Source of the DNA: Thermomicrobiales bacterium | Lineage (GTDB): Bacteria > Chloroflexota > Chloroflexia > Thermomicrobiales > UBA6265 | NCBI GenBank assembly: GCA_046328375.1 | Contig: JAXLWT010000022.1 | Coordinates: forward strand, 20,804 to 84,803 | Direction of reading: 5' to 3' | Length of the DNA stretch: 64,000 bases | Shown: piece by piece, positions 2,812-58,050 of the stretch | Position numbering within the stretch: the stretch's first letter is position 1 | Layout of the letters: every line of letters starts with the position of its first letter | The notes under the pieces: model-generated | Databases searched by the model: none | Seen by the model: the letters and a program-made list of their open reading frames with translations, nothing else | Told to the model about the DNA's origin: nothing | Translations under genes and position numbers: made by a program

Positions 2812-3203
2812 AGTACCTGGTTGACAGCGATTGGCTCATCGATGCCTTTGGAGGTATCTCCAGCGCCATTCATACGTTGGCTTTGCTGCGTCGAGACGCT
2901 CCAGCAGTAAGTATCGTCTCCTATGGAGAACTCTTCGACGGCGGAGCGGCAATGCCAGACCCCGAGCGGAGAATCGCTCAACTTGCTGAATTTCTTGATG
3001 CATTCGAACTTCTCGGCCTTGATCCATCCACGATGAGAATCTTCGCGCAAATCCGAAACCAACTTCGTCTGAAGGGACAGATTATCCCGGACTTCGACAT
3101 CCTCATCGCCTCCACCGCGCTCCAGTACGACCTCACACTGCTGACGCGCAACACGCGCCACTTTGCGCGGATACCGAACCTCAGGCTGTATCTGCCGCGC
3201 TGA
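2808..3203 (+). CDS. vapC: PIN-domain ribonuclease toxin VapC
   Basis: 131 aa. Acidic PIN residues are in the expected order (LVDSD..., YGEL, DILIAST, TRNTRHF). It is translationally coupled to the upstream small ORF. Confidence 0.8.
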   Translation: MKYLVDSDWLIDAFGGISSAIHTLALLRRDAPAVSIVSYGELFDGGAAMPDPERRIAQLAEFLDAFELLGLDPSTMRIFAQIRNQLRLKGQIIPDFDILIASTALQYDLTLLTRNTRHFARIPNLRLYLPR

Positions 3204-5115: not shown

Positions 5116-7097
5116 CAGTTGTTTCCCCCAGTGGAAGCGGCCGGGACGTGAGATCCCTGGCCAAGCCAGCGCGCAGTCCAGTCCCGGACGCGGCGCAAGA
5201 GATCGAGTTGATGTTGACGCTCCCGGATGCCATGTGGCTCACGCGGGTAGACCACCAGCTCACACGGGACGCCGCGCTCCCGCAGGGCCTGAGCCATGAG
5301 TTGGCCCTGGCTGACCGGCACCCGCGCATCGTCGGCGCCGTGCAGGATGAGCAGGGGCGTGGTGGCCTGATGGGCGAAGGAGATGGGGCTGAGCGCGGCG
5401 TGCTGGTGCGGCCCTGGGCCTTCCCAGCCTGCACTCCCGCCCAGCATACGCTCGAAGTGCGGCAGATCGCTGGTGGCGTTCATCATGCCCCAGTCGCTGA
5501 CACCAGCACCCATGATGCCCACCTTGAAGCGCGTCGTTTGCCCCACGGCCCAGGCGGTCATGAAGCCACCCTGGCTCCAGCCGCCGATTCCGAGCCGCTC
5601 TGGATCGGCGATGCCTGCGGCCACGGCGTACTCCACCCCGGCCAGGACATCGAGCCAGTCCTCCTTGCCGACTGCACCAGCGACGGTGTCCGCAAACGCG
5701 TGCCCGCGACCAGAACCGCCGCGTGGGTTTGGCAAGAGCACGGCGTACCCCGCCGTTGCCAACCACTGGCCCCAGCGCATTGGCCCGACCTGGAGCGAAT
5801 CCGCATACCGCCAGTAGGGACCGCCATGGACGAGGGTCATCAGCGGAAATGGTCCATCGTCACGCATTGCCCCGGGCGGCAGAATCAGCAGTCCCTCAAT
5901 CTCCAGGCCGTCGGGCGCGGTCCAGGTCACCCGCTCCTGGGCACCAAACGGAAGGGCCTCCAGCTCAGGGTTGGTGTTCGTGACCCGCGTCAGTGGTTCT
6001 CCAATGCGCCCGAGCCAGAGATCACTCAGGTGGTCCTGCGTGCTGCCGGCAAGCGCGATCGTCTCGCCGTCGGCGCTGACGCTGATCTGATCGATCTCAC
6101 CGGGAAAGTGTGCCAACCTGGCCAGTTTCTCCGCGTCGGCCGTTGCCGCCGCCCCATCGGCAAGTGACTCAAGCCTGGCAATCCAGCTTTCAAGGTGATC
6201 GAGGATCGGCAGGTACGGCGCACCGGCCGCGTCAGTGACAACGCAGTTTGGGCAAGCTTCGAGTTCATGCGCAAAGATCCGCGTTTCGCCGCTCGCAAGG
6301 TCGAGCGCAAAGACACCCTGGCCGCCCTGCATCCCGGGCAGGAGTTGCGCGAGGTAGAGCAACGTCGCGTCGTTGGGACCCCAGGCAAGGTCACCGCCAC
6401 CGGAGGTCAACGCAGCCACGGTGCGCGGGGCGTCATGACCCGTCAGGTCGATGAGTACGATCTCGCCGCGCTCGGTCACGTTGTCCAGTTCAGGCGTCGG
6501 CCAGACAATCGCGGCCAGCCGCTTCCCATCACTGGCGGCTGCAACCTCGACGACGTGCCGGTCTGGTAAGCCGTCAACCGTCGTGATGTCGCCAACACTG
6601 GGATCCAGCAGGCGCAGTCGCTGAAAGGGCCACTCCGCGCCGTAGACCTCGGCGTCGTCGCGCCGCTCCTTGCGCTCCTTCTGCTCCGCTGTTTCAGGGT
6701 CAATTGCCAGGAGCGCGATCCGGCCGTCGGGCAGCGGCAGGTAGTCCGCGATGCCGGGTTCCCAGTCGGTGAGCGCTTCCGCTTCGCCACCGTCCGGAGA
6801 AATGCGATGGAGCTGTGCCGTCCCCCGTTTCGCCCGATCCGACAGGAAGAAAACCGTGCGCCCGTCTGCGCTCCAGCGCGGCGCGTGATCCTCTGCCGTC
6901 CCGGCCGTGAGCTGGCGCGCAGGCTCCTCCCGGCTGGCCAGCCAGATGGCACTGGCGGGATGCTCCTCGCGCTGGCCGAATGGCGTCACCACGTACGCCG
7001 CTAGGTTCCCATCCGGGCTCAGGCGTACGCCACCCACCCGTCGCGCGTCTGCAATGGCTTCGGCCGTCAGTTCCGGCTGCGTTTCTGCTGCTGGCAT
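5115..7097 (-). CDS. S9 family serine peptidase, tandem paralog
   Basis: The ORF-track frame is 5115-7283, but the first 62 aa are Arg-rich junk that would overlap the upstream gene. ATG at 7097 gives MPAAETQPELTAEAIAD..., collinear with the paralog. GGWSQGGFMT nucleophile. ATGA overlap with the downstream paralog at 5113-5117. Confidence 0.88.
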   Translation of the reverse strand: MPAAETQPELTAEAIADARRVGGVRLSPDGNLAAYVVTPFGQREEHPASAIWLASREEPARQLTAGTAEDHAPRWSADGRTVFFLSDRAKRGTAQLHRISPDGGEAEALTDWEPGIADYLPLPDGRIALLAIDPETAEQKERKERRDDAEVYGAEWPFQRLRLLDPSVGDITTVDGLPDRHVVEVAAASDGKRLAAIVWPTPELDNVTERGEIVLIDLTGHDAPRTVAALTSGGGDLAWGPNDATLLYLAQLLPGMQGGQGVFALDLASGETRIFAHELEACPNCVVTDAAGAPYLPILDHLESWIARLESLADGAAATADAEKLARLAHFPGEIDQISVSADGETIALAGSTQDHLSDLWLGRIGEPLTRVTNTNPELEALPFGAQERVTWTAPDGLEIEGLLILPPGAMRDDGPFPLMTLVHGGPYWRYADSLQVGPMRWGQWLATAGYAVLLPNPRGGSGRGHAFADTVAGAVGKEDWLDVLAGVEYAVAAGIADPERLGIGGWSQGGFMTAWAVGQTTRFKVGIMGAGVSDWGMMNATSDLPHFERMLGGSAGWEGPGPHQHAALSPISFAHQATTPLLILHGADDARVPVSQGQLMAQALRERGVPCELVVYPREPHGIRERQHQLDLLRRVRDWTARWLGQGSHVPAASTGGNN

Positions 7098-7179
7098 GCT
7101 CTCCCCTAGCTTCGTGCTGGAGGCATTGTCGCAAGTTACGCCAGCAGCAGGGCAAACCTCGATGAGCGCACCGCGGGCG

Positions 7180-8067
7180 CTACGCCGTCTGGCGGGCCCA
7201 CGCCTCAACGCCCGCCCGCACCAGCTGCGTTCCGGACGCAATCGCCGTCTCGCCACCCTCGCCATCGGTCCAGATTGAGACAACCGCGAAGACGGCGACC
7301 TTGCCGGTGTTCATCACGGTGTTGATCGCCGCCTGCACCTGCTCCATGCTCGGCCCGTTGAACTCCACCGTGCGGTGGTTGGGAACATAGCGACCGTCGA
7401 GGATATCGGCGTCGATGTGCAGGTAGATGATGTCGCACTTCTCGGCCAGCGTATCGATAGCCTCCTGCAGATCTTCGCCTGGGAAGCCAGGCGCGGGCGC
7501 GGCAATCGTGACATCGGTCGCGCGGATCAGTTGCTCTTCAGCCGGATCGAGGTTGCGCACATCGACCATGACGATACGGTCGGTCGGCAGTGGTGTCTCC
7601 TGCTGAGAAAGCAGACGCCACTCGGGATAGGCGAGTCCGGCTGAGACGGCAACGGGCATCCCGCCGAGCATGCCAGAGAGGGTGGTGCGTGGAGTGTTGA
7701 AATCCCCGTGGGCGTCGAACCAGACCAGACCGATCTTCGCAGCCGGGCCATGCGCCTGCTGGATCCCGCCGACAATGCCAGGCACGGCGTCACAGGTGCC
7801 GCCAACCACCAGGACGGGCTTACCAGCGCGTCGACCCTCTGCCACCGCGTCCGCGATCTGGCCGCCGAAGATCCCGAGCTTGACGGTTGGCTCGTCCGCG
7901 TCGTGCCCGGCCGGGAACTGTGGCTCCGCGACCGTCGGCTCACCAAGCAGTTCGTAGACGCCAGACGCCGCGTAGTGCTCGACCGGGTCCGCCTTCGCGG
8001 ACCAGCGTTGCGCCACGTCGTAGCGGTTCTGGACGACGTGCAGGCCGGACCGTGATTGCGTGGACAT
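7180..8067 (-). CDS. Arginase/agmatinase/formiminoglutamase (ureohydrolase) family protein
   Basis: 295 aa. Metal-binding motifs VWFDAHGDFNTP and YLHIDADILD. Confidence 0.8.
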   Translation of the reverse strand: MSTQSRSGLHVVQNRYDVAQRWSAKADPVEHYAASGVYELLGEPTVAEPQFPAGHDADEPTVKLGIFGGQIADAVAEGRRAGKPVLVVGGTCDAVPGIVGGIQQAHGPAAKIGLVWFDAHGDFNTPRTTLSGMLGGMPVAVSAGLAYPEWRLLSQQETPLPTDRIVMVDVRNLDPAEEQLIRATDVTIAAPAPGFPGEDLQEAIDTLAEKCDIIYLHIDADILDGRYVPNHRTVEFNGPSMEQVQAAINTVMNTGKVAVFAVVSIWTDGEGGETAIASGTQLVRAGVEAWARQTA

Positions 8068-13276: not shown

Positions 13277-14008
13277 TCAGTCGTGAAGTGTTGCGTCCGC
13301 CGCAGCGGCCCGGTCACGGACAGCAGCGGCCATGCACGACGCGTGCGATTGAGCATATCCCTCTGGCAGCAAGACGACGCGAGTGCCCAGTTCGGCCACG
13401 TGCTGCCAGAGTCGCCACCACTTGGCGCCGTGCCACTTCGCCGACATGACATGGATCAGGATCACCGGAAGCGCTGCCGGGCGGTCGTAGTGACCAGGGC
13501 GCCAGACGTTGGAGGAGTCGAGCGGCATTGGCCCGGTGAGCACCTCCGCAACGTTCGCACGCAGCGGCATCTCGAAGAACGCGATGCCAGCAATCGCCTG
13601 TCCGTGCGCCAGCATCTGGCGCGCGGTTTCCCAGGCCAGGTATCCGCCCAGGCAGTTGCCGAACAGGAGGTACGGGCCAGCGGGCTGCAGGGCGCGAATC
13701 TGCTGCACATACTCCGCGCCGAGCGCAGGCACACCCTCCTGCCGCACCAGGTCACGGTGCCTCGCCGTCTGCGCGAATCCCCAGCACGGGCAATCCCCTT
13801 CTACCAGGCGCGCGATCTCGGTGTCACCGCGCATCTCAGCGTTCGTGTGGCTGGAAGGAAAGACAAAGATGGGACGTTGCCGGCCGGTACGCTGTAACGG
13901 CACCACCCAATCCGGCAGGAACGGCGTGATGATTTCGCTCGGGTCAGCCTCGATTGCCAGGCGACGCACTGCGATGAACCGCCTGTCACCTGGCACTTGA
14001 GCGAGCAC
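13277..14008 (-). CDS. Thioesterase-like alpha/beta hydrolase with Cys in the nucleophile elbow
   Basis: RPIFVFPSSH... and LLFGNCLGGYLAWETARQM (GxCxG where thioesterase domains have GxSxG). The start is uncertain: GTG at 14008 or 13996, or ATG at 13834. The ORF-track frame runs to 14170 and overlaps the Cys-rich frame. Confidence 0.5.
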   Translation of the reverse strand: MLAQVPGDRRFIAVRRLAIEADPSEIITPFLPDWVVPLQRTGRQRPIFVFPSSHTNAEMRGDTEIARLVEGDCPCWGFAQTARHRDLVRQEGVPALGAEYVQQIRALQPAGPYLLFGNCLGGYLAWETARQMLAHGQAIAGIAFFEMPLRANVAEVLTGPMPLDSSNVWRPGHYDRPAALPVILIHVMSAKWHGAKWWRLWQHVAELGTRVVLLPEGYAQSHASCMAAAVRDRAAAADATLHD

Positions 14009-14370
14009 CAGATTGTCCCGATGCCCCCGCACTCCTGACCTTCGGTCTTGCACGCACAGGCGCCATCGACACAGACCTTCTTGCAGCATTCTGCGTCGGC
14101 GCTGCATGGCTGCAACCCCACGATGCAGCAGTGAGTCGGGCCGGTTGGGCTCGAAGCGTTGGGCAGGCATGCCAGACCCTTGCCTTTACAGCAGGGAATC
14201 TTCTGCGTGCAACGGTCGCCCGCCTTCCTGGCTCAGGTCGTCTTCTTCTTTTTCCTCTTGCCCTCAACATCGCCGGAAGCCAGAACCCCAAGGAGCGTGC
14301 TCAACCCGGCGCCGCCGATGGCCAGGTTCAGGCGACGACGTGTCCAGGCATCGCAGGCGTTTCCGTCCAC
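13801..14370 (-). pseudogene. Tat-leader/polylysine/Cys-rich family member interrupted by an in-frame TGA
   Basis: Own translation from GTG at 14370, with an AAGGA Shine-Dalgarno 8 nt upstream: VDGNACDAWTRRRLNLAIGGAGLSTLLGVLASGDVEGKRKKKKTT, then TGA at 14235-14233. The same frame continues ARKAGDRCTQKIPCCKGKGLACLPN...CSADAECCKKVCVDGACACKTEGQECGG... Confidence 0.6.
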
Positions 14371-35922: not shown

Positions 35923-35948
35923 AAAAATACGTATTTTTACTGATGTGC
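35923..35948 (+). promoter_or_regulatory. Conserved AT-rich element, copy 1 (perfect 16 bp palindrome AAAAATACGTATTTTT, then ACTGATGTGC)
   Basis: Lies 77 nt upstream of the GH5 gene ATG. It matches the copies at 37716 and 56656. Confidence 0.7.
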
Positions 35949-36025: not shown

Positions 36026-37198
36026 ATGGAACCGACGAAACTTGACGCCCTCGCTCGCACCCTGAGCACCGCTGACCTCGCGCCGTCACGGCGCGGTCTC
36101 CTCTCTGGATTGGCCGCCGGCGTGGCCGGCCTGGCCGGCCTGACCATGCTGGACGACGTCGACGCCAAGAAGCACAAGGGCAAGAAGAAGAAGAAGTGCT
36201 CGAAGAAGAAGAAGAAGAAGGGCCTCTGCGGCGGAGGCGGTAACACCCCAGACCCATACACCGGACCGGTCTTCACGGTCAGTGGACGCTCCATCCTGGA
36301 CACGGGGGGGGACCCGGTCGCACTCCGCGGCGTCAACAAGATGTCCGTCTTCGATGACAACGACCCACGTGGCAATTCCTACTTCCCGCAGATTGCCCTC
36401 TCCAAGTCGAACACGGTGCGCATCGTCTGGGCGATCGAGGACGACAACGGCCCCACGAATGTCAACGACCTCGCGGCGCTGATCACCAACTGCCAGAACA
36501 ACAAGATGCTGCCGATGATCGAGCTGCACGACGCAACGGGCGATCTCTCGCAGTTGCCGAAACTGGGCAACTACTGGACCCGCAACGACGTGCTGCAGGT
36601 CATCTTCAATGCGGGCGGCAACCTGCTGATCAACATTGCCAATGAGTGCGGTGACGACACGGTCACCGCCAACCAGTGGGTGTCGGCGTACACGCCGGTC
36701 ATCCGCCAGATGCGCAACGCCGGCATTCGCACGCCGCTCGTTATTGACGCCCCGGACTTCGGCAAAAACCTCGAGGTCGTGGTGGCTGGCGCGAATAATC
36801 TGCTGAGCGTTGATGCCAACCTGATCTTCTCCGTCCATCCCTACTGGCCGAAGAACGACGGCGGCGGCGCGACCTTTATCGAACAGCAGTTCACGGCCGC
36901 CTTCAACAAGGGGTTTGCCCTGATCATCGGCGAGTTCTCGCAGTGGGGCGCCTTCAATGGCAACAACAGCATCTGTGTGGGCAATGGCGAGTGTGATTAC
37001 AACGCGATCATGACCAAGGCCAGCGCCAAGGGGTTCGGCTGGTACGCCTGGGAGTGGGGACCGGGCAATGAGTTCGGGGATGCGAACTGCGCCAAGATGA
37101 ACATGACGACGAACGGCACCTTCGCCACGCGGCAGGCAGGTTGGGCCACGGACGTCTTCAACCGCATCGCGGCCGAGTCCAACCCCATCATCGGCTAG
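36026..37198 (+). CDS. GH5 glycoside hydrolase (beta-mannanase-like) with family-specific Tat leader and polylysine spacer
   Basis: MEPTKLDALARTLSTADLAPSRRGLLSGLAAGVAGLAGL...DAKKHKGKKKKKCSKKKKKKG, then a GH5 body with acid/base NIANECG and nucleophile ALIIGEFS. Confidence 0.8.
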   Translation: MEPTKLDALARTLSTADLAPSRRGLLSGLAAGVAGLAGLTMLDDVDAKKHKGKKKKKCSKKKKKKGLCGGGGNTPDPYTGPVFTVSGRSILDTGGDPVALRGVNKMSVFDDNDPRGNSYFPQIALSKSNTVRIVWAIEDDNGPTNVNDLAALITNCQNNKMLPMIELHDATGDLSQLPKLGNYWTRNDVLQVIFNAGGNLLINIANECGDDTVTANQWVSAYTPVIRQMRNAGIRTPLVIDAPDFGKNLEVVVAGANNLLSVDANLIFSVHPYWPKNDGGGATFIEQQFTAAFNKGFALIIGEFSQWGAFNGNNSICVGNGECDYNAIMTKASAKGFGWYAWEWGPGNEFGDANCAKMNMTTNGTFATRQAGWATDVFNRIAAESNPIIG

Positions 37199-37205
37199 TT
37201 CCCCA

Positions 37206-37237
37206 GGGCCAACCGGGCGCAAGCGCCCGGTTGGCCC
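37206..37237 (+). terminator. Stem-loop terminator candidate after the GH5 gene
   Basis: GGGCCAACCGGGCGC-AA-GCGCCCGGTTGGCCC inverted repeat immediately after the stop. There is no T-tract. Confidence 0.55.
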
Positions 37238-37715
37238 CGAAACCGGATCGCAGCGTGCCGGCCGGCGTCCTGGCACCCTGAGGCACATCGCCACAGGGTG
37301 CCAGGAGCCAGCCGTTGACCCGCGGAAGGTTGTGGGACTTCTTGGACACACGAAACGACCGCACAGGTGCCGGACTGCCTCCGGAAGCCTGGTCCGCAGA
37401 CCGAAGCGTTCAGCCGGAAATGGAGTTAGCCGCCTGGATGCTGCCGGCGTTGATGGACTCACTCGCCAGCTCGACGGGCGCGGTGGCAGTTGCTCCGGCG
37501 CTGCCGGGTGGGCCGGGTCTCTGGCTGCGGCGATGGTCGGCAACACCACCGCCGGTAGGCACAAGAAGATGGCTCCCCTCTTCCAGGCGACCATTTTGAG
37601 CACGAATGCGGCTGCCGCCATCGACCATGCCGCGGACCCCATCTGGTCACCAAACCGGCGAGCCAATCTGAATCCAGGTCCGGTGTCCAACCCGACCGCC
37701 GCCATGGCCTCCCCC

Positions 37716-37742
37716 AAAAATGCGTATTTCTACTGATGTGCC
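37716..37742 (+). promoter_or_regulatory. Conserved AT-rich element, copy 2 (AAAAATGCGTATTTCTACTGATGTGCC)
   Basis: Lies 93 nt upstream of ATG 37836. It is identical to copy 3 over 26 nt. Confidence 0.7.
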
Positions 37743-37835
37743 GGCGCCCCCGCGGGCGCATGCTGTGCCCATCCTCGGCAAAGGCCGAGGGCGACAGATC
37801 GGGGACTTCGGTCCAGCTCCAGGAGGAGCATCACG

Positions 37836-38246
37836 ATGGATGGTTCACGTTTTGACAGCCTGATCAGTCGTCTCACTGAGCCCGGTTCACGGCGCCGCGC
37901 GCTCGGGGTGCTTGGCATCTCGGCGTTGGTTGCCGGTGGTCTGGAAATATCGTCACCCGACGTGGAAGCCAGGCGGCGGCGGCGGAAGAAGCACCGCAAG
38001 GGAAACAAGGGCGGCGGTGGGGGCACGCCGCTGCAACTTCGTGACGTCTGCGTACCCGGGCAATCCACGTGTGCCTCCGGGCTGCAGTGTGATAGTCCCA
38101 CCACACGTCACACCTGCAGCAGCACCGTTGAGGGCGTCGATGCCTGGTGCTGCGTGCCGCCCGGCGGAAGCTGCACCGAGTGCGATTGTTGCGGCGATTT
38201 CTACTGCGGTGGGGATGGCACCTGTATCCCGAACCCTGAAGGCTAG
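37836..38246 (+). CDS. Small secreted Cys-rich protein with Tat leader and polybasic spacer
   Basis: MDGSRFDSLISRLTEPGSRRRALGVLGISALVAGGL...ARRRRRKKHRKGNKGGGGG, then about 73 aa containing 12 Cys. AGGAGG Shine-Dalgarno upstream. Confidence 0.8.
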   Translation: MDGSRFDSLISRLTEPGSRRRALGVLGISALVAGGLEISSPDVEARRRRRKKHRKGNKGGGGGTPLQLRDVCVPGQSTCASGLQCDSPTTRHTCSSTVEGVDAWCCVPPGGSCTECDCCGDFYCGGDGTCIPNPEG

Positions 38247-38286
38247 AACCCAATGGTCGTCGGAATCTTCTGACACCTTGCGGTTC

Positions 38287-38318
38287 CTCGCGGCGCTCCG
38301 GCTAAGGAGCGCCGCGAG
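38287..38318 (+). terminator. Stem-loop terminator candidate
   Basis: CTCGCGGCGCTCC-GGCTAA-GGAGCGCCGCGAG, a perfect 13 bp stem. Confidence 0.6.
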
Positions 38319-38398
38319 CGGCGGCACAGCAACCAGATGCAACCCTGTTCGTCATTTCCCACCCGCTTTCCACGCACTACGAATCTGGAGACTCGGCT

Positions 38399-39835
38399 GT
38401 GGATGGTTCGCACTTTGATCACCTCACCAAAGCGTGCCGTACGCTGAAAACACGCCGCACGGTGACCCAGGTGCTGGCTGCAATCCTGGCAAGCGGGACT
38501 ACTCAGGCTGCCCATGTCGATGCCAAACGCAAGAAGCACAAGAAGCCGTGCAAGGCGCCAAAGCAGAAGTGCAGCGGCAAGTGCCTGTCGGTGCTGACCG
38601 ACGACCGCAACTGTGGGTCATGCGGGACCCGCTGTGGCGACGGCCAGAGTTGCAAGAATGGCAAGTGCACGGGCGGCTCGACTCCACAGGACTGCCTTCC
38701 CGGCGAGTGCTGTGAGGACAACCAGGCTTGCGGCACAGATGGTCGATGCCGGGGTGGGGTGTGCCAGCCGAAGCCCACCTGCCACGCCCACGGCGAGACC
38801 TTCCCCGCCACGGACACCACGCCGTGCTGCAGCGAGAACACGGCCAGCAATGCCGGAACCACCGGCGTCGAAATCACCTGCCTCCCCGGCGAACTGGGGA
38901 ACCCGTGCCTGGCCGATGGCGATTGCCGGAGTGGGAGCTGCATCGGCTACCAGTGTGTGGGCTGCTCGGCCGGCGAGGGGGTGTGTAACGGCCGTTGCGT
39001 CTCGCTGAGTTCCCAGAGCAACTGCGGCGCCTGTGGGAACGCGTGCGCACGGGGATCGTATTGCCAGGGCGGGTCCTGCGCATTGCGGTACGTACTGGAC
39101 TTGCAGTGGCCGGTAAGCGCCTGCGACGACGTGTACTCCACCAGCGACGGAGCGGTGTTCATCGCCTTTAGCGGGCAACACTGCGTGCGGGACTACAGCG
39201 GGACAGGCCAGGTTCGGCGCACCTACGGCGTTTGCGGCACACCGGGGACAGACAACTCGCATTTAAAGAACCCCCGCGCGGTCGCGGCGGACGCCTTCTA
39301 TGTCTACGTGGCGGATTACGACAACGATCGCATCCAGATCTTCTCTCGCACCGTGAACTCCAGTGCCATCGGCAGAATCGGCAACGGGAGCGGAAATGGG
39401 AACAACCAGTTCAGAGGACCGAACGACATCGCGTTTGACGCCGACGGGAACATCTATGTCGCGGATTACGTCAATGATCGCGTCCTGAAATTCAGTGACG
39501 CTGGCGCCCACCTGCTGACCTTTGGCGGATCAGGCACTGGCAATGGTCAGATCCAGGGTGCGACGGGTGTTGCCGTCGACGGTCATGGCAACGTGTACGT
39601 CTCGGACCGGATCGGGATCCGGGTCCAGAAGTTCGACAGCGCCGGTCATTTCCTGGACAAGTACGGCACGCTCGGGCACGCGCCGGGAGAAATCAACCTG
39701 CCGCTGGATGTTGAGAGCAACGGCGACGTGTTCATCGAGATTACTTCAATGGACGACCAGCAGCGCGCAACTGGAATCTGGTCCGTATCTTCGAAGCCAG
39801 CTAACGGGCCAGCTGTCCCACGTGGACGCCAATGA
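38399..39835 (+). CDS. Tat leader / polybasic spacer / Cys-rich repeats / NHL-repeat beta-propeller protein (3' end apparently frameshifted)
   Basis: GTG start: MDGSHFDHLTKACRTLKTRRTVTQVLAAILASG...AKRKKHKKPCKAPKQKC. Repeats NCGSCGTRCGDGQSCKNGKC and NCGACGNACARGSYCQGGSC. NHL blades YVYVADYDNDRIQIF, IYVADYVNDRVLKF, VYVSDRIGIRVQKF. A further blade (NLYIADVNYGVVRY) lies in another frame up to 39905. Confidence 0.8.
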   Translation: MDGSHFDHLTKACRTLKTRRTVTQVLAAILASGTTQAAHVDAKRKKHKKPCKAPKQKCSGKCLSVLTDDRNCGSCGTRCGDGQSCKNGKCTGGSTPQDCLPGECCEDNQACGTDGRCRGGVCQPKPTCHAHGETFPATDTTPCCSENTASNAGTTGVEITCLPGELGNPCLADGDCRSGSCIGYQCVGCSAGEGVCNGRCVSLSSQSNCGACGNACARGSYCQGGSCALRYVLDLQWPVSACDDVYSTSDGAVFIAFSGQHCVRDYSGTGQVRRTYGVCGTPGTDNSHLKNPRAVAADAFYVYVADYDNDRIQIFSRTVNSSAIGRIGNGSGNGNNQFRGPNDIAFDADGNIYVADYVNDRVLKFSDAGAHLLTFGGSGTGNGQIQGATGVAVDGHGNVYVSDRIGIRVQKFDSAGHFLDKYGTLGHAPGEINLPLDVESNGDVFIEITSMDDQQRATGIWSVSSKPANGPAVPRGRQ

Positions 39836-40115
39836 CAACCTGTACATCGCGGACGTCAACTACGGCGTGGTGCGCTACCGCCTGTTGGCCAGTTCACCCT
39901 CCTGACAAGCGCACCTGGTGAAAGAGTCCGGAACACGGCCCTTTCGTCCGCCAGGAACCAAGGTATGCGACGACGAGGGCTGCTGGGGTGACTCGGGCGA
40001 TCAGGAATCCGTTCTTGATGAGGGCTGATCGCCCAGCCGAGACACACAAACACCCCGGCGTGGTAGCGCCGGGGCGTTGCAGCACTCGATGTCAGCGGAT
40101 TTCCAGTCCCATCCT

Positions 40116-41927: not shown

Positions 41928-42617
41928 CTAGATCTTGTTGGCGCGGATCACATAGCGGTGGAGGTATTCACCCGCCACGGCATCGAACTCACCGCCACAG
42001 GTAATCAGCGTCAGCGATTCCTGGCCTGTGTCCCCAACGACCTGGGTAGCAATCACTTCCGGCGTCAGTTCCGTTTGCACGTTGAAAAGCTGCGTCCACT
42101 CGACGGCGTACTCGATCTGCTCACCATCGTCGCCGATCACACGCAGAATGTCTCCAGGCTGCAGGCTGGGCACGCCCTGGAAGATGGCCGGGCCAACGTC
42201 CCAGTAGTCGACATGGCCAGCCATGACCACGTTGCCGCCCTGCCCCACCTTGCCGAGTTGCGAGTACCAGGTGACGACCCACGGGCCACTGGGATCCTGC
42301 ATCACGCCGTCGACGATGGAGCCGTCTTCAACCGGCGCGTCCAGCCCGATGCTGTCCGCCTGAAGCTCCACCGGCGTGAATCCGGCCGCTCGCGCTGGCG
42401 CGGATTCCTTGACCTTGCTCGCGCCCAGGACCACCGGGCCCGGACGACGGCCACCCATGGAGGGGACTTCCGACAGAACTTCCTGCGATTGAGCCTGGGT
42501 ACCGTCATCTTGCGCGGAGACACCGGCCAGCGGCAAGAGCAATCCCAGGAGTAGCGCCAGGGTAACCAGGATCCCGAGGATGCGGTACGACCTGGCCGTG
42601 CGCGAACGCTGCTTCAT
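41928..42617 (-). CDS. Sortase-family transpeptidase (class E/F-like)
   Basis: ATG at 42617 gives MKQRSRTARSYRILGILVTLALLLGLL (membrane anchor). Catalytic contexts VVMAGHVDYW and LTLITCGG, then the Arg region HRYVIRA. Confidence 0.75.
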   Translation of the reverse strand: MKQRSRTARSYRILGILVTLALLLGLLLPLAGVSAQDDGTQAQSQEVLSEVPSMGGRRPGPVVLGASKVKESAPARAAGFTPVELQADSIGLDAPVEDGSIVDGVMQDPSGPWVVTWYSQLGKVGQGGNVVMAGHVDYWDVGPAIFQGVPSLQPGDILRVIGDDGEQIEYAVEWTQLFNVQTELTPEVIATQVVGDTGQESLTLITCGGEFDAVAGEYLHRYVIRANKI

Positions 42618-42912
42618 AGTGCGCGATCGACCTCCGAATACAACACGGTACAAGAACTTCTGTCATCCGTCGCGCGGACGACGGCGTGCAGTCTGGGGGC
42701 GAGCCCGCCCATCATACAACGCGCCTCCGGCGGAAAAAGGGTCAGAAGCGTCCGTTCTCCGCGACGATTGTCCTCAATGGTAAGGTACGGCACAGAACGG
42801 CTGGCTGGATCACTGAGGAGAGCGCAGCGTGGATCGCGAAGCCCTGCACGGTACCCGGATGGTGGAGCGCGAAGCGCAACTGCCCACGGTGAAATCGAAG
42901 GAAGCGATCCAG

Positions 42913-46464: not shown

Positions 46465-47238
46465 ATGGACGGAAAGCAGTTCGATGATTTGGCCCGCGTC
46501 GCTGGAGACGTGATGCCCCGGCGCAGCGCGCTTGGCCGTGTGCTGGTCAGTGCGGCGGCCGTGATGATGGCGAGGCCGGGTCTGGCGAGCGCCAAACGCG
46601 GTGGCAAGAAAAAGAAGCGTTGTAGGAAGCTGACCCAGGGCTGCGGCGGCAAGCAAAAGTGTTGCAACGGGCTGACGTGTGCAAACGGCGCCTGCGCTTG
46701 CGCGGCGGGCACAGTTGCTTCGGGCAACGCCTGCGTACCGCAACAGCCCGGCCCCACCTGCGCGAGCGACGCCCAGTGTGGCTCCGGCCAGGTCTGCCAG
46801 GTGGGAACGTGCGTCCCAGCTCCGTCCGAGTGCGTCAAGGACGCCGATTGCAACTTGCCCGGCGCGAAGTGCGTGAACGGCACATGCGTGGTCAAAGTGG
46901 TCATTGAATGCGCGCAGAACAACGACTGCGGGCCGAACGAGGTCTGTGAAACCCGGCCGAACGGCCGTGTGTGCATCTGCCCGGACACGGAGGCCGGCCG
47001 CTGCATCCGGCGCTGCGAAAAGCAGTCGAACTGCCCTGGCGCCTGCTCCTGTCGCAATCACTTCCCGGAAGCGTCACCATTCATCGAGGATGGTATCTGC
47101 GTCAAGGAACCGTTCCTCCTCTGCGATGCGAAGACCTGTAATGGGGACAGCGACTGCAAGAGCAACGAGATCTGCATCGGCACAGGCTGCGGCTCGAACG
47201 GCACCGTCTTCAAGTGCTCGCCAATCTGCGTCGATTGA
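46465..47238 (+). CDS. Secreted Cys-rich repeat protein with Tat leader and polylysine spacer
   Basis: ATG at 46465 with GAGGAG upstream. MDGKQFDDLARVAGDVMPRRSALGRVLVSAAAVMMARPGLASAKRGGKKKKRCRK..., then repeated C-x2-D/N-x2-C-x2-G-x2-C-x2-G-x-C units. Confidence 0.8.
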   Translation: MDGKQFDDLARVAGDVMPRRSALGRVLVSAAAVMMARPGLASAKRGGKKKKRCRKLTQGCGGKQKCCNGLTCANGACACAAGTVASGNACVPQQPGPTCASDAQCGSGQVCQVGTCVPAPSECVKDADCNLPGAKCVNGTCVVKVVIECAQNNDCGPNEVCETRPNGRVCICPDTEAGRCIRRCEKQSNCPGACSCRNHFPEASPFIEDGICVKEPFLLCDAKTCNGDSDCKSNEICIGTGCGSNGTVFKCSPICVD

Positions 47239-50194: not shown

Positions 50195-51623
50195 GGGTGT
50201 ATGGCTTCCAGACCTGCACAGAAGCTGTACGGCGACTATCTCTGAGGAGCGCGGCATCTCCGGTCGCGAGGGCATGACCAACCGCCTCAATGAATTCCCC
50301 GTTCGGGGTGTACAACTCACTGGCGCGAGCATGCGAACCGGCGATCTGCGCTCAAGACGGGTCCTCTCACGCGCAGTCGGCCACGAAGGCGCTGAACATA
50401 TCGTGAAACTGAAAGGTCCTGCGGCGGTCATCCAGTGGTGACACAAAGAGCTTGGCCCGAGCGACGTATGTGATGAAGTCCAGAGCTTCGACCTGTAACC
50501 CAGCGGTGGTCGGCTCGGGCTCGAGATTTATGTTGGGCCGTTAGGCGAGAGGGACGCAGCTTGCTCTGAACGAGAGACTGAGCCAAGACCTCCTCTAACA
50601 TGGCAGGGTCTCACTGCAAAGGCGTGCTGCGCCTACGTCCCTCACGGCCTTGTGGAATACGCAACTCGCCACTCATTCCTTCTTTCTAGACATGTCCGGC
50701 TATGAAACTTGCATCAGGATGTGTGGAATTGCGCAACGGCACGCCGCTTCGCAGACCCAGATCTTCCTGCTACGTACGCGTGTGACCTGTCACGCATGGC
50801 TCCTCACAACGCCAGGCGAGCACATGCGGAGTTGAAACTTCTCCTTCATGTTGGCCAGAGTGCATGAACCCTCACGAGAAAACGTAACAAGTCATTTGCT
50901 CGCTGCAAGTGAGTCACCGTGACTGTCTCGCACCAGAATTACACCCGCGATGCGCCATTGTGGTTCTTCCCGGCGAGAGCGGTCTGAAGCATGCTGGAAT
51001 GAGAGCGTGGTCATCTGATGTGATGCGCTGGGGGCGATCAAAATCGTGAGACGAACTGCGCTTGAACGCGGAGGTAGCCCACGTGGAGGGAACCAGGCTC
51101 ACGATCTCCCTGGTGCTTCCTGGCCGCGTCGGTGGCCGGCGGGCTGCTGTCGGTCTTCTTCACGTCTGGTCCCCGTGCGCGCATTGGCCAGAGCACGGCC
51201 ATGGCTTCGGTTGGACCCTGTGCCCTCGCCCGCAACATCAAACCACTTCGGTCATTGGCCCGTTGCGGGTCGATTCGCCGGAGCCTGGCCAGACGGCCAG
51301 GGTGGGCCGTGGGATCCTCGCTGCTGTCGGGGGTCGGCCGACACGGCCGTCACACCAATTGAGTCGCCTCCATTGGGATGAGTATGCGCGCTAGCAAAGG
51401 AGACGTACGCCGTGCTTTTTTCCGCGATGGGTTCGCTCGGCGACCGTCTGGATTCGAACTCTTTCACTGCTCTTGAAGCAGAGCGCGCTTTGGCAACGAT
51501 TGTGCGAGCGGCTGGATGACCTTGAAAAGCCCGTTGCCGAACGCCTCGTAGCCGCCGGTCCCGGCTCCGCGTCGCCGGTCGCACATGAATCCGCGTAAGC
51601 GGGAAAGGCCCTCGTGCTTCCTC

Positions 51624-52577
51624 ATGCAGAATGCAACGACAGACCATTGGTTCGAGCTCAATATCGCCTGTGATCCGGAGTCCGTCGAAGTGGTCACAGG
51701 AGTATTCACGCACTATGGATTCACGCAGGGCGTAACTGTCCAGGAGTCATTCGCACGAGTTGACGACGGCGACGAATTCGCCGTGGCTCCGCGTGATTTG
51801 GTGCAGGTCAGCACGGTGCTTAGAGCGGCCGATGTCGGCCCTGAAGCGTTTGCAGAGGCGCGCCGCTCGCTGTGGCTGGCGCGGCAGGCGCTCTGGATCA
51901 AGAGTCGATCTCGACCAATCGGGGCGCTGCACGTTCTCGAACGATGCGGAGACGACGGCGCCGTGGCTCGAGAGGGTCAGCCCAACGCACTGCGGGTGGG
52001 GAACCAGGTGGTAGTGAAGGTCCCCGGTTACGATCTCGTTGCAATGCCCGGCGAAACAGTGATTGAGATCGACGCGGGCATCGCGTTCGGCACCGGCCGG
52101 CATTTGTCCACCCAGCTCTGCATGCAGGCGCTTGAGAACGAGATGGCAGTGGGTGCTTCAGTCCTCGATGTCGGCACGGGTTCGGGGCTGCTGGCGATCA
52201 CAGCCGCACTGCTTGGCGCACGGACGGTCGACGCCATGGACATCGATCCGGCCGCGGTGCGTGTCGCGCAGGCGAACGCCGAGCGTAACAGCGTTGGCGG
52301 GAGCGTTCGCATCGCGCTGGGCACCGTTGGGCCAGGCTGCCCGTTTCCGGGACCGTTTGACCTGGTGATCGCCAACATCATTGCCGGCGTGCTGATCGAG
52401 CTGGCTTCAGATTTGGCAGGCGCGGTGGCACCGGGCGGTACATTGATTATTGGCGGCATCATTGACGACAAGGAATTCCTGGTCCATGAGGCCTTCGCTC
52501 ACGAGCATCTCGTCCTGGCCCGCCGGGTCCAGGTTGAGGATTGGGTAGCGCTCGTCTGGAGAAAGCCCAGGACCTGA
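51624..52577 (+). CDS. PrmA-like SAM-dependent methyltransferase, diverged paralog
   Basis: VLDVGTGSGLLAITAALLGARTVDAMDIDPAAVRVAQANAERN and DLVIANI. It lacks the EDW-x3-W box that is present in the second copy. Confidence 0.75.
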   Translation: MQNATTDHWFELNIACDPESVEVVTGVFTHYGFTQGVTVQESFARVDDGDEFAVAPRDLVQVSTVLRAADVGPEAFAEARRSLWLARQALWIKSRSRPIGALHVLERCGDDGAVAREGQPNALRVGNQVVVKVPGYDLVAMPGETVIEIDAGIAFGTGRHLSTQLCMQALENEMAVGASVLDVGTGSGLLAITAALLGARTVDAMDIDPAAVRVAQANAERNSVGGSVRIALGTVGPGCPFPGPFDLVIANIIAGVLIELASDLAGAVAPGGTLIIGGIIDDKEFLVHEAFAHEHLVLARRVQVEDWVALVWRKPRT

Positions 52578-54402: not shown

Positions 54403-54582
54403 CGCAAATTCAGTTGATTCAGCCGAGTCACCGTTGACTCCGCACGCCCTGGCTTCAGGTGAAGCGCTGGAGTTCACGGTTGCCGGTCAGGAGCAGGGGT
54501 GGCGAGGAATCGCTGCCCCTGCTCCTTTTGGGGAAAGGCTCTGCCGTCCCGGTCCACTTCCACGTGGGTGATGGTGTCGTTG

Positions 54583-55581
54583 ATGACAGAACAGACCGAA
54601 ACAGGCTCCTGGGTGGAGTTAGCCGTGAGTTGTGCGCCGGAGGCTGTTGAGATCGTCGCCACGCTCCTGGCGAGTTACGGCCTCAACGACGGCGTCATTA
54701 TTGAGGAGCCGTTCACCCAGGATGTGAACAGTGACGATGTGCTGATTGACTCCTCCCTACCAGTGGCGGTGCGCACCTTCCTCGACGCCAACCGCGATGA
54801 CAGGGAGATCGAGGAGATCGAGACGGCGATCGGCGACGGACTGGCGCAGTTGGACCCGGACTACAGCGTCGGCCGCCTGTTCGTGCGCACGATGACGATA
54901 CACAAAAGGGATGGCGAGGACTGGGCGGAGGCCTGGGTGCGCTTCTCCAACATGGTGCGCGCAGGGGGGCGGGTAGTGGTCACCGCGCCGTGGTACACCG
55001 AGTACGAGCCGGCGCCGGACGAGATCGTCATTCCCCTCGAGACTGGACTGGCGTTCGGCGGCGGTGGGCATGCCGCAACGCAGTTGGCGGTGGAGGGCCT
55101 GGAAGCCATTGTGCGACCAGGCGATCATGTTCTTGATGTTGGCGCCGGTACCGGCATCCTCGCCCTGGTCGCCGCTCGTCTTGGCGCCAGCGCCGTAGAC
55201 GCGCTGGACGTCGACCCTGTCGCAGTGCGGGTGGCGCAGGATAACGTGGAGCGGAATGGCCTGGGGAACATCGTCCGGGTTGAACTCGGCAGCGTTGGTC
55301 CTGGTCAGCCGTTCCCTGGGCTGTACGACGTGGTCGTGGCCAACAATATGGCCAGCATCTTGATCAAACTGGCCACCGGTATGACCAGCGCGGTGCAAGA
55401 CGGCGGAACACTCATCCTCAGTGGCATGCTCGACTCGCGTGAGGCGGAAGTCCGCGAGACGTTCGAGGCTTTGGGCTGGCGTGTCGTGCAGCGAGAGCAG
55501 CGCAAGTGGGTCATGCTGGTGTTGCGCCGGTTTGAAGACGAAGCAGGACACGTCTTGCAGGGGCCGCTCTCCCAGTCATAG
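54583..55581 (+). CDS. prmA: Ribosomal protein L11 methyltransferase
   Basis: ATG at 54583 gives MTEQTETGSWVELAVSCAPEAVEIV... GEDWAEAWVRF box, VLDVGAGTGILALVAARLGASAVDALDVDPVAVRVAQDNVERN. Confidence 0.85.
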   Translation: MTEQTETGSWVELAVSCAPEAVEIVATLLASYGLNDGVIIEEPFTQDVNSDDVLIDSSLPVAVRTFLDANRDDREIEEIETAIGDGLAQLDPDYSVGRLFVRTMTIHKRDGEDWAEAWVRFSNMVRAGGRVVVTAPWYTEYEPAPDEIVIPLETGLAFGGGGHAATQLAVEGLEAIVRPGDHVLDVGAGTGILALVAARLGASAVDALDVDPVAVRVAQDNVERNGLGNIVRVELGSVGPGQPFPGLYDVVVANNMASILIKLATGMTSAVQDGGTLILSGMLDSREAEVRETFEALGWRVVQREQRKWVMLVLRRFEDEAGHVLQGPLSQS

Positions 55582-56655: not shown

Positions 56656-56682
56656 GAAAATGCGTATTTCTACTGATGTGCC
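56656..56682 (+). promoter_or_regulatory. Conserved AT-rich element, copy 3 (GAAAATGCGTATTTCTACTGATGTGCC)
   Basis: Lies 62 nt upstream of GTG 56745. It is identical to copy 2 over 26 nt. Confidence 0.7.
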
Positions 56683-56744: not shown

Positions 56745-57293
56745 GTGGACGCAAACCGGTTTGATGATGTCGCACGTTCGCTCCAGCGTGAGGCGCCGCG
56801 CCGTGGCGCGCTCGGTCTGCTGCTGGGTGGAGCCCTGGCCCTGACCGGGATCGCGGAGACGGTCGCGAAAGGCAAAGGGAAAGGCAAGAAGAAGAAAAAG
56901 AAGGATGTCTGCGAGAAGGCGAAGAAGGCCTGCAAGGGCAACTGCGGTATGGGAGAGGCGTGCTGCTCCAGTTTCGACTGCAGTTCCTGCCAGAACCTGT
57001 ATTGCAACGGCAACCAAGGCGGGGCCAAGGCTGGTGTGTGCGGCTGCGATGCCCCCGATGTCCTCCACAACGGTCGCTGCGGTAGCAAGCCAGTCTGCAT
57101 TCCGGCAGGGCAGAAGCGCGACTTCTACGACGACAGAATCTGTTGCAGTGGGAGCGAGGTCACGGACATCAATGACCCCGCGTACGGCACCTGCCTCCCC
57201 GGAGTCCTGTGGTGCCTGTCGGATGCCGATTGCACCGGCGGGTCATGTCGCGGCTACCAGTGCTATGCGCCCGAGCTCGGCTGCAATCTCTGA
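56745..57293 (+). CDS. Secreted Cys-rich protein with Tat leader and polylysine spacer
   Basis: GTG at 56745 with GGGAGG upstream. VDANRFDDVARSLQREAPRRGALGLLLGGALALTGIAETVAKGKGKGKKKKKKDVCEKAKKACKGNCG..., then a Cys-dense body. Confidence 0.8.
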   Translation: MDANRFDDVARSLQREAPRRGALGLLLGGALALTGIAETVAKGKGKGKKKKKKDVCEKAKKACKGNCGMGEACCSSFDCSSCQNLYCNGNQGGAKAGVCGCDAPDVLHNGRCGSKPVCIPAGQKRDFYDDRICCSGSEVTDINDPAYGTCLPGVLWCLSDADCTGGSCRGYQCYAPELGCNL

Positions 57294-57438: not shown

Positions 57439-58050
57439 GTGGCCAGGGCCCCCTGCATGCAAGGGAAGGGCCGGCGAAGCAAGCATCACAAGAAGACGTG
57501 CAGGGCTGAATCGATCGCTCAAACCTGCAACGGCAAATGCGGTCGCGTCACCAACAACTGCCAGAAGACGATCGATTGCGGTTCATGTGCCTGTGAGCCG
57601 GCATGCGCTGCCTGCGACATCTGCCAGGAGTTTCCGGACACCCCGGGTACCTGCGTCATCGACCCGGCACAGCAGGATCGGGCCTGTGGCAGCGCTGGCA
57701 AGGTCTGCCAGCCGGACGGCACCTGCCGTTGTGTTCCCCTGACGGAATGTCCCGCCGGCAAGGAGTGCGGCGGGATCTGCGCCGATGGGCAGTGCGTCAC
57801 CGGGATCGGCAGGTGTGCCGAACGGACCAACGTCTGTACCGCCCCCTGCAACGGGAATCCCAACTGCTTCTGCATCCCGACCCGGGCAGGAGACACACGG
57901 TGCGCGCTGTATGACTCGGACGGAGGCTTTCTGCGGCCGTGCACCAGCGATGCCCAGTGCACGGGCCTCGGTCCAGGGGCATTCTGCCCGCCGCAGTTCG
58001 ACAGTTGTGGCGGGGTGAGTTCGCTTCCATGCTGGGCAGTAGCAGCGTGA
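57439..58050 (+). CDS. Cys-rich family paralog lacking the Tat leader
   Basis: GTG start 14 nt after AAGGAG. It begins inside spacer-like sequence (QGKGRRSKHHKKTC), followed by about 190 aa of Cys-dense sequence. No signal peptide occurs in any upstream frame. Confidence 0.6.
   Translation: MARAPCMQGKGRRSKHHKKTCRAESIAQTCNGKCGRVTNNCQKTIDCGSCACEPACAACDICQEFPDTPGTCVIDPAQQDRACGSAGKVCQPDGTCRCVPLTECPAGKECGGICADGQCVTGIGRCAERTNVCTAPCNGNPNCFCIPTRAGDTRCALYDSDGGFLRPCTSDAQCTGLGPGAFCPPQFDSCGGVSSLPCWAVAA

Follow-up and report, generated by a model that had tools for sequence, protein, structure and literature searches.

The closest described counterparts of the leader treated here are the signal peptides of the pathway for twin-arginine translocation (Tat). 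This leader is an N-terminal module shared by several proteins encoded in a 64,000-nucleotide stretch of DNA (in the following the window, with a guanine–cytosine (GC) content of approximately 64%) from a Thermomicrobiales bacterium of the phylum Chloroflexota (assembly GCA_046328375.1, contig JAXLWT010000022.1, positions 20,804 to 84,803). It consists of a conserved box at the extreme N-terminus (FDxL box), an arginine pair (RR) and a hydrophobic region, and in many proteins it is followed by a tract of basic residues. We suggest, with a probability of roughly 0.55 for the statement as a whole, that the carriers are exported proteins with a Chloroflexota-specific extended Tat-type signal peptide in which tract and box play the roles proposed below.

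Related signal peptides and envelope proteins

Typical Tat signals (TIGR01409, PF10518; consensus S/T-R-R-x-F-L-K) resemble the leader in the arginine pair after S/T followed by x and two hydrophobic residues, in the long n-region, in the weakly hydrophobic Gly/Ala-rich h-region, in the A-x-A and in the basic residues near the cleavage site. They differ in three respects: the conserved 13-residue box at the extreme N-terminus of the leader occurs in no described Tat consensus, its basic residues number 6-19 and are located after and not before the predicted cleavage site, and its cargo consists mostly of disulfide-rich miniproteins instead of cofactor enzymes.

Positively charged residues in the c-region or early in the mature region are known as a signal for avoidance of the general secretory (Sec) pathway, and several positive charges behind a weakly hydrophobic twin-arginine helix almost abolish Sec transport (PMC7317946, PMC5449189). 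The corresponding stretch of actinobacterial Rieske proteins likewise places positive charges directly C-terminal to such a helix. However, these known cases comprise one to about six scattered charges, whereas the tract of the leader is nearly homopolymeric lysine with a median of 10 basic residues, is often followed by a proline linker and is found on soluble secreted cargo. The original prediction regarded a basic run at this place as a feature of no nameable class of exported proteins. This was too far-reaching with respect to the basic residues as such, but their number and their position after A-x-A are indeed unusual as judged from the sequences. The individual parts of the leader fall into known categories, namely Tat signal, Sec-avoidance charges and n-region sorting motifs.

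Among the latter is YSIRK, which is conserved in the n-region of some Sec signals of Gram-positive bacteria (PMC5962339). Like the FDxL box, YSIRK/GxxS and the ESPR of autotransporters are conserved, lineage-restricted motifs of the n-region that mark only part of the exported proteins and can be joined to unrelated passengers. But these are Sec signals with other motifs in other lineages, their cargo comprises LPXTG proteins or autotransporters, and there is no sequence similarity; neither the window proteins nor 142 relatives have a Pfam match to these families, and the comparison is an analogy only. The succession of a hydrophobic helix, a Lys-rich and a Pro-rich segment before the functional domain is also the architecture of TonB-type proteins, and the polycationic non-covalent surface anchors of monoderm bacteria are known to bind to an anionic envelope by charge. 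Homology to either of them is missing, and in contrast to them the helix of the leader is predicted to be cleaved and envelope binding is putative. Finally, the families MXAN_6577-like (NF041328), TIGR04201, Stig1 and DUF7107 give sub-threshold or borderline matches to two of the window proteins (those starting at 38399 and 46465), but these families are defined by a Cys-rich body and not by a leader, and the scores lie mostly under the curated cutoffs.

A comparison with characterised families had been set beforehand as a check, and no family with this leader was found in Pfam, NCBIfam or the literature. Likewise, neither database contains a model of the box or tract and no paper describing them was found, although coverage of the literature was incomplete and this absence is not a proof.

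Leader genes of the window

A hidden Markov model (HMM) trained on 32 leaders was run on all open reading frames (ORFs) of the window with 40 aa or more and returned exactly five strong matches with E values from 1.5e-21 to 4.8e-14. Apart from one weak match described below the best-scoring remainder had an E value of 0.25. The shared N-terminal module proposed originally is therefore real and statistically strong.

All five genes are encoded on the forward strand. The gene at 36026..37198 (390 aa, leader E 4.8e-14) codes for a GH5 glycoside hydrolase; its predicted signal comprises residues 1–47 (36026-36166, RR at 36089-36094) and is followed by the basic tract KKHKGKKKKKCSKKKKKK at 36167-36220 with 14 K/R. 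The gene at 37836..38246 encodes a Cys-rich protein (136 aa, E 2.9e-20) with the predicted signal at 37836-37970 (RR at 37890-37895) and the tract RRRRRKKHRK at 37971-38000 (9 K/R). Its translation confirms the predicted high Cys density, as all twelve cysteines are found within the C-terminal ~70 residues. In the gene at 38399..39835 (478 aa, E 2.5e-17) the predicted signal (38399-38524, RR at 38453-38458) and the tract KRKKHKK (38525-38545, 6 K/R) precede a Stig1/MXAN_6577-like Cys-rich region and an NHL beta-propeller. Two NCGxCGxxC units, also part of the original prediction, are seen in the translation. The end coordinate given previously for the finding as a whole, 39905, belongs to an out-of-frame ORF, and the NHL gene ends at 39835. 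The fourth gene (46465..47238, 257 aa from the MDGKQF start, 34 Cys, E 1.8e-16) encodes DUF7107/Dickkopf-like repeats behind a predicted signal at 46465-46593 and the tract KRGGKKKKRCRK at 46594-46629 (9 K/R). The fifth gene, with a GTG start, is located at 56745..57293 and encodes a Cys-rich protein (182 aa, 20 Cys, E 1.5e-21) with the predicted signal at 56745-56867 and the tract KGKGKGKKKKKK at 56868-56903 (9 K/R); the leader is the same in its homologues P0001, P0025 and P0042.

Two further loci complete the set of seven listed originally. On the reverse strand a decayed leader gene (13801..14370) has a degenerate leader VDGNACDAWTRRRLNL and the tract KRKKKK and is the weak HMM match mentioned above (E 7.5e-5). 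It is disrupted by an in-frame TGA (14235-14233) directly after KRKKKKTT, and the Cys-rich frame runs 143 codons past this TGA to position 13801. The TGA could represent a pseudogene, a sequencing error or readthrough. The 45-aa stub is identical to the ‘hypothetical protein U0075_16400’ (P0002) at NCBI from a metagenome-assembled genome (MAG) of the Thermomicrobiales, and the NCBI annotation at this locus covers the stub alone. An alpha/beta hydrolase at 13277 had been considered as a possible further passenger; this is a thioesterase ORF (13277-14170, reverse strand) in a frame different from that of the Cys-rich ORF, which it only overlaps, and it was rejected. On the forward strand the ORF at 57439..58050 begins in a remnant basic stretch (GKGRRSKHHKK), and no leader is found in the DNA upstream of it. 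It is a leaderless Cys-rich homologue, as had been predicted, since BLASTP aligns its body with the parts behind the tract of leader-bearing proteins that are encoded in other genomes (loci L073, L058 and L023; E values from 2.6e-12 to 2.7e-6, among them 2.9e-10). Just upstream of it an inverted repeat was noticed by eye that is possibly the terminator of the 56745 gene.

Anatomy of the leader

The leader shows a constant order of elements, starting with the box M-D-x-x-R-F-D-x-L-x-R-x-L and followed by S/T-R-R-x-[A/L/V]-L, a hydrophobic region rich in Gly, Ala and Leu, and A-x-A as predicted signal-peptidase site. Motif statistics were computed on 153 leaders. RR is present in all of them, preceded by S/T in 85%, with A/L/V dominating at +3 and L at +4 after RR. 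Within 446 kb of Chloroflexota DNA all 27 basic tracts behind a signal-like hydrophobic region belong to leaders with an RR. The strict arginine pair in the n-region as opposed to the lysine-dominated tract nearby downstream argues that the pair is under selection and not merely a result of GC-driven composition.

The hydrophobic region is weak (median Kyte-Doolittle hydropathy 1.55), and the distance from RR to the tract has a median of 24 residues. Counted backwards from the first K/R of the tract, position -1 is A in 82% of the leaders and position -3 is one of A/T/V/G/S/I in 88%; positions -2 and -4 are often acidic. The tract starts at the predicted position +1 of the cleavage site in the window copies and in 146 of 153 relatives. 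It comprises a median of 10 K/R (range 4-19) with a K:R ratio of 4.4:1, and it is followed by a proline-rich linker in 31% and directly by Cys-rich sequence in 62%. A lipobox as in lipoproteins is absent, with K or R following A-x-A and a Cys directly before the tract in only 6 of 146 cases.

These features have to be considered also for the possibility of an uncleaved signal anchor, in which the hydrophobic region would stay in the membrane and the Lys tract together with the proline linker would form a TonB-like spacer on the outer face that displays the Cys-rich domain. Tat-inserted N-terminal anchors are known, for example in Rieske proteins (PMC5449189), and this possibility would account for the Pro-rich linker behind 31% of the tracts as well as for the location of the tract directly behind the hydrophobic region in every case. 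Nevertheless, it appears unlikely, because the hydrophobic region is weak and glycine-rich and the residues around the putative cleavage site (A at -1, small residues at -3, acidic ones at -2 and -4) fit the rule of signal peptidase far better.

The length of the Lys tract varies among near-identical leaders, as is seen when the GH5 protein of the window is compared with its close relatives P0005, P0011 and P0014. In P0011 a Glu-rich stretch takes the place of the Lys tract, which is what an (AAG)n run would give in the GAA frame. Such differences point to repeats prone to indels, or else to errors of assembly, within the tract. Slippery poly(A) or ribosome sliding was rejected as cause of the tract, because its Lys codons contain AAG at the same proportion as background genes.

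Phylogenetic spread

The leader had been described as property of a local paralogous family, but its distribution is lineage-wide. An exhaustive search with a leader profile built from 14 sequences against 1.84 billion cluster representatives retrieved 4,720 representatives at E<=1e-3, of which 185 reach E<=1e-10, and in nearly all of the best 150 representatives the match starts at residue 1. Taxonomy was examined with a degenerate codon-level DNA pattern (M-D-x3-F-D-x-L-x-R ... R-R) in one genome per species (GTDB representatives), which yielded at least 118 loci; about 55 of those listed encode a true leader. Among the matches listed the true leaders are found in MAGs labelled Thermomicrobiales, Sphaerobacterales/Sphaerobacteraceae, Chloroflexia or Chloroflexota, mostly Thermomicrobiales and Sphaerobacterales. 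Among the matches listed, true leaders under other labels come only from a 1.8-kb contig assigned to a Pyrinomonadaceae bin and from an unclassified bin. Pattern matches listed from other phyla lack RR and a hydrophobic region and were rejected as chance occurrences. A second leader search, aimed at cultured hosts, gave only one further named match, again a Thermomicrobiales MAG.

Leader copies occur in clusters, with eight in one 8-kb locus, five in another one and 5 to 7 in the 64 kb of the window. The locus with eight leader-HMM matches in 8 kb is L035 (Chloroflexia MAG CAVXMK010000021.1, 16001-24000). It contains two FDxL-leader proteins with NHL repeats whose architecture is like that of the window protein starting at 38399, and, in addition, four short paralogues in which an RR leader and a basic tract occur without the FDxL box.

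Separability of box and tract

Box and tract had been viewed as one fused module. They are in fact two separable parts, since each of them is found without the other. When 35 leaders were picked by the FDxL-RR DNA pattern alone, and thus regardless of charge, a strong tract (6 or more K/R in 10 residues) was seen in 14 of them and no tract (at most 3) in 12. A tract of 6-19 Lys/Arg at the predicted mature start is present in roughly 40% of FDxL leaders. Conversely, basic tracts follow box-less RR leaders in the four mentioned paralogues of L035 as well as in L038, L092, L064, L118 and L060.

Since box and tract reach a very high copy number within one lineage only, they could represent the ordinary look of signal peptides in a GC-rich lineage without any sorting meaning. 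We consider this very improbable, because plain RR signals exist in the same genomes. In the window the substrate-binding proteins encoded at 24948 and 34486 have RR signals with neither FDxL box nor basic tract and give no match to the leader HMM, and other low-Cys proteins of the same genomes, one of them sulfatase-like, also carry plain RR signals without box or tract (the pattern-based census of RR signals was used only qualitatively). Moreover, the leader tracks a cargo class, because in 29 of the 35 FDxL leaders the cargo contains at least 5% Cys. The proposal that the module is not simply the generic Tat signal of the organism is hence upheld.

Cargo proteins

The leader is portable across unrelated passengers, as the original prediction had stated. 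According to Pfam and NCBIfam the window cargo comprises GH5, a Stig1/MXAN_6577-like region with NHL repeats, DUF7107/Dickkopf-like repeats and two bodies without any family. The GH5 assignment (PF00150) has 67.8 bits at a cutoff of 23.5 and an E value of 1.4e-18 and covers profile positions 2-270 of 272. In the 38399 protein NHL repeats (PF01436) score 42.9 bits versus a cutoff of 20 (3.7e-11), and its Cys-rich region matches Stig1 of Pfam with 4.4e-6 and C_rich_MXAN6577 of NCBIfam with 3.3e-11, the latter under its cutoff. The 37836 protein has no Pfam family above threshold, and the 46465 protein shows a weak match (E 0.003) to cystine-knot miniproteins in the PDB. For the 56745 protein the AlphaFold2 (AF2) model has a mean confidence (pLDDT) of 54, which is too low for use. 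This protein (57188-57262) and the 38399 protein (38875-38955) have a common Cys module, C-L-x-D-x-D-C-x-x-G-x-C-x-G-Y-Q-C, with a DNA identity of 72-73%, and therefore not the leader alone but also cargo modules have apparently been shuffled among genes.

Overall, Cys-rich modules prevail among the cargo, and weak matches make some of them knottin-like. Most of the 142 relatives have no Pfam domain; the remaining ones match Conotoxin, Toxin_18, UPF0506, Stig1, Dickkopf_N, CAP, NosD/beta-helix, cadherin-like or Big_9, and NCBIfam adds NosD-family, YkwD and others. A large related leader-bearing subfamily from outside the window (P0021 and relatives) is characterised by the signature N-x-F-G-C-x-x-V-G-x-x-C-...-C-C-S-G-x-C. 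Its AF2 model (m4723247386bf) comprises a mature domain of ~125 aa with a pLDDT of about 90 and has no significant neighbour in the PDB, the best one being colipase (E 2).

The types of cargo are extracytoplasmic (GH5, NHL, CAP, beta-helix, cadherin-like, conotoxin-, Stig1- and Dickkopf-like). This has consequences for an inverted topology, in which the tract would remain in the cytoplasm by the positive-inside rule with the N-terminus outside, and the Cys-rich bodies would be cytoplasmic membrane-tethered metal-binding proteins. The charge distribution would agree with such an arrangement, as the C-terminal flank of the hydrophobic region is far more positive than the N-terminal one. It is hardly credible, however, that domains such as GH5, NHL, CAP, cadherin-like and knottin-like ones should reside in the cytoplasm, and the invariant S-R-R-x-A-L and the conserved A-x-A would be left unexplained.

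Dibasic processing is familiar from eukaryotic toxin and defensin precursors. By analogy, the tract could be a pro-peptide or processing site that is trimmed after export by a Lys/Arg-specific protease and thereby frees a knot-like peptide. Conotoxin-, Toxin_18- and Dickkopf-like modules do occur among the cargo (Pfam matches to Conotoxin, Toxin_18 or UPF0506 are found in 7 of the 142 relatives) and the length of the tract varies freely, as would be the case for a disposable spacer. But one dibasic site would suffice for this purpose, the tract is present also on GH5, NHL and beta-helix cargo that needs no such maturation, and near the leader genes examined no conserved protease gene is found, all of which renders this possibility clearly improbable.

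The cargo bodies are net acidic, and this holds true alike for those with and without a tract (median -4.4 versus -3.7 per 100 aa, p=0.98). The idea that the tract compensates the charge of acidic cargo was consequently rejected as discriminator, and a reading as cationic defensin-like peptides is weakened by the same net acidity.

Proposed route of export and role of the tract

The leader itself is probably a specialised Tat-type signal peptide for the described class of cargo. The motif Z-R-R-x-hydrophobic-hydrophobic that defines Tat signals is present in all five window copies, the leaders possess an uncharged and moderately hydrophobic region of at least 12 residues followed by A-x-A, and their basic residues appear to lie where Sec-avoidance charges are described, i.e. 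in the c-region or early mature region.

In the extended Tat-type reading that we prefer, the RR leader would direct the precursor to the Tat translocase. The dense positive charge behind the weakly hydrophobic helix would bar the Sec pathway as an exaggerated Sec-avoidance signal and leave Tat as sole route. Cleavage at A-x-A would then leave the tract as a cationic N-terminal tail, which, spaced by the proline linker, would bind the protein to the anionic cell surface by electrostatic attraction. The carrier cell is thought to lack an outer membrane. In view of the published Sec-avoidance effect of such charges, approximately ten lysines at +1 would commit a precursor to Tat, and a protein in need of such a tail might be exportable by Tat alone. 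We think that the tract acts mainly as surface-holding tail of the mature protein, because of its location after A-x-A, the proline spacer that frequently comes next and its unequal length in close relatives; the difference in tract length between the GH5 protein of the window and P0005 fits a role of bulk charge. Altogether the specific roles proposed for the basic tract are tentative and somewhat less probable than the reverse.

The FDxL box would flag the cargo class for a lineage-specific recognition step, e.g. by a chaperone or a variant of the Tat receptor. It is conserved from the first residue across thousands of otherwise unrelated proteins, and by analogy with the known n-region motifs it is most likely a recognition element. 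A more far-reaching possibility is that the box defines a dedicated Chloroflexota-specific export branch for disulfide-rich miniproteins with its own receptor, chaperone or Tat paralogue, and that polylysine represents a new charge-based surface anchor which only a Tat-type translocase could move. This we regard as doubtful.

Several observations weigh against the extended Tat-type reading. TIGR01409 scores the GH5 leader with 14.9 bits, under its cutoff of 16.7, and does not match the other window copies, and only 3 of the 142 relatives are detected at E<=0.05; this model has 29 positions and low power. RR could partly stem from the arginine bias of a GC-rich genome. Disulfide-rich proteins are no classical cargo of Tat. 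As one to four charges are sufficient for Sec avoidance and a third of the FDxL leaders are tract-less, the tract must do more than this or something else, and no property of the cargo was found that explains which proteins bear it. The amphipathicity of the FDxL box is not significant (22.7% of shuffled sequences reach the observed moment). Finally, neither the window nor two other long contigs nor an all-against-all clustering of the ORFs flanking 55 loci revealed a conserved neighbouring partner gene, for instance for a chaperone, peptidase or Tat paralogue.

Genomic neighbourhood

The neighbours in the window are housekeeping or unrelated genes and include MnmA, a sortase, an arginase-family enzyme, a sulfatase, BipA, two PrmA paralogues as well as carotenoid and glycosyltransferase genes. 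The sortase-domain gene (PF04203, 5.9e-17; 41928-42653, reverse strand) is located between leader genes and is consistent with an envelope that contains wall-anchored surface proteins. Both PrmA-like paralogues (ribosomal protein L11 methyltransferase family) are encoded on the forward strand at 51585-52577 and 54499-55581, about 2 kb apart from end to start. Two adjacent long ORFs on the reverse strand (3181-5115 and 5115-7283) contain repeated segments (3227-3681 and 5161-5615) with 70-74% identical DNA at a spacing of 1934 nt, which looks like a tandem gene duplication. A search of the window against Rfam gave no matches.

Large STAND/LuxR-type regulators are the sole recurrent neighbour family and are found at 10 of the 55 Chloroflexota loci (L021, L032, L047, L051, L066, L072, L081, L102, L109 and L118). 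They are STAND ATPases with a C-terminal LuxR helix-turn-helix, and two of them show a TIR-like N-terminal start as judged by eye. Their presence may reflect regulation or the mere abundance of this family in these genomes.

Upstream of three leader genes of the window an AT-rich motif of 25 nt (AAAATGCGTATTTCTACTGATGTGC) is found on the forward strand, which suggests their co-regulation. Its first copy (AAAATACGTATTTTTACTGATGTGC, 35924..35948) lies 78 nt upstream of the GH5 start, the second one (37717..37741) 95 nt upstream of the 37836 start and the third one (56657..56681) 64 nt upstream of the 56745 start. Against these three matches, 100 shuffles gave an expectation of 0, and conservation does not extend into the flanks. 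The motif is absent upstream of the genes starting at 38399 and 46465, and the 118 fetched loci also lack it. It could represent a shared promoter or operator.

Possible meaning for Tat export and for Chloroflexota

If the proposed reading is true, Tat signals can bear lineage-specific sorting boxes, which so far are mainly familiar from Sec signals (YSIRK, ESPR). The translocase would routinely move ten or more lysines across an energised membrane, and these proteins would thus represent a natural test of how Tat and Sec handle charge. Environmental Chloroflexota MAGs would contain a very large unannotated repertoire of secreted Cys-rich proteins, some of them knottin-like, with thousands of clusters and up to eight genes in 8 kb, nearly all of which are labelled ‘hypothetical’. 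The leader HMM provides a simple handle for finding such proteins, and leader and tract could serve as parts for export and surface display.

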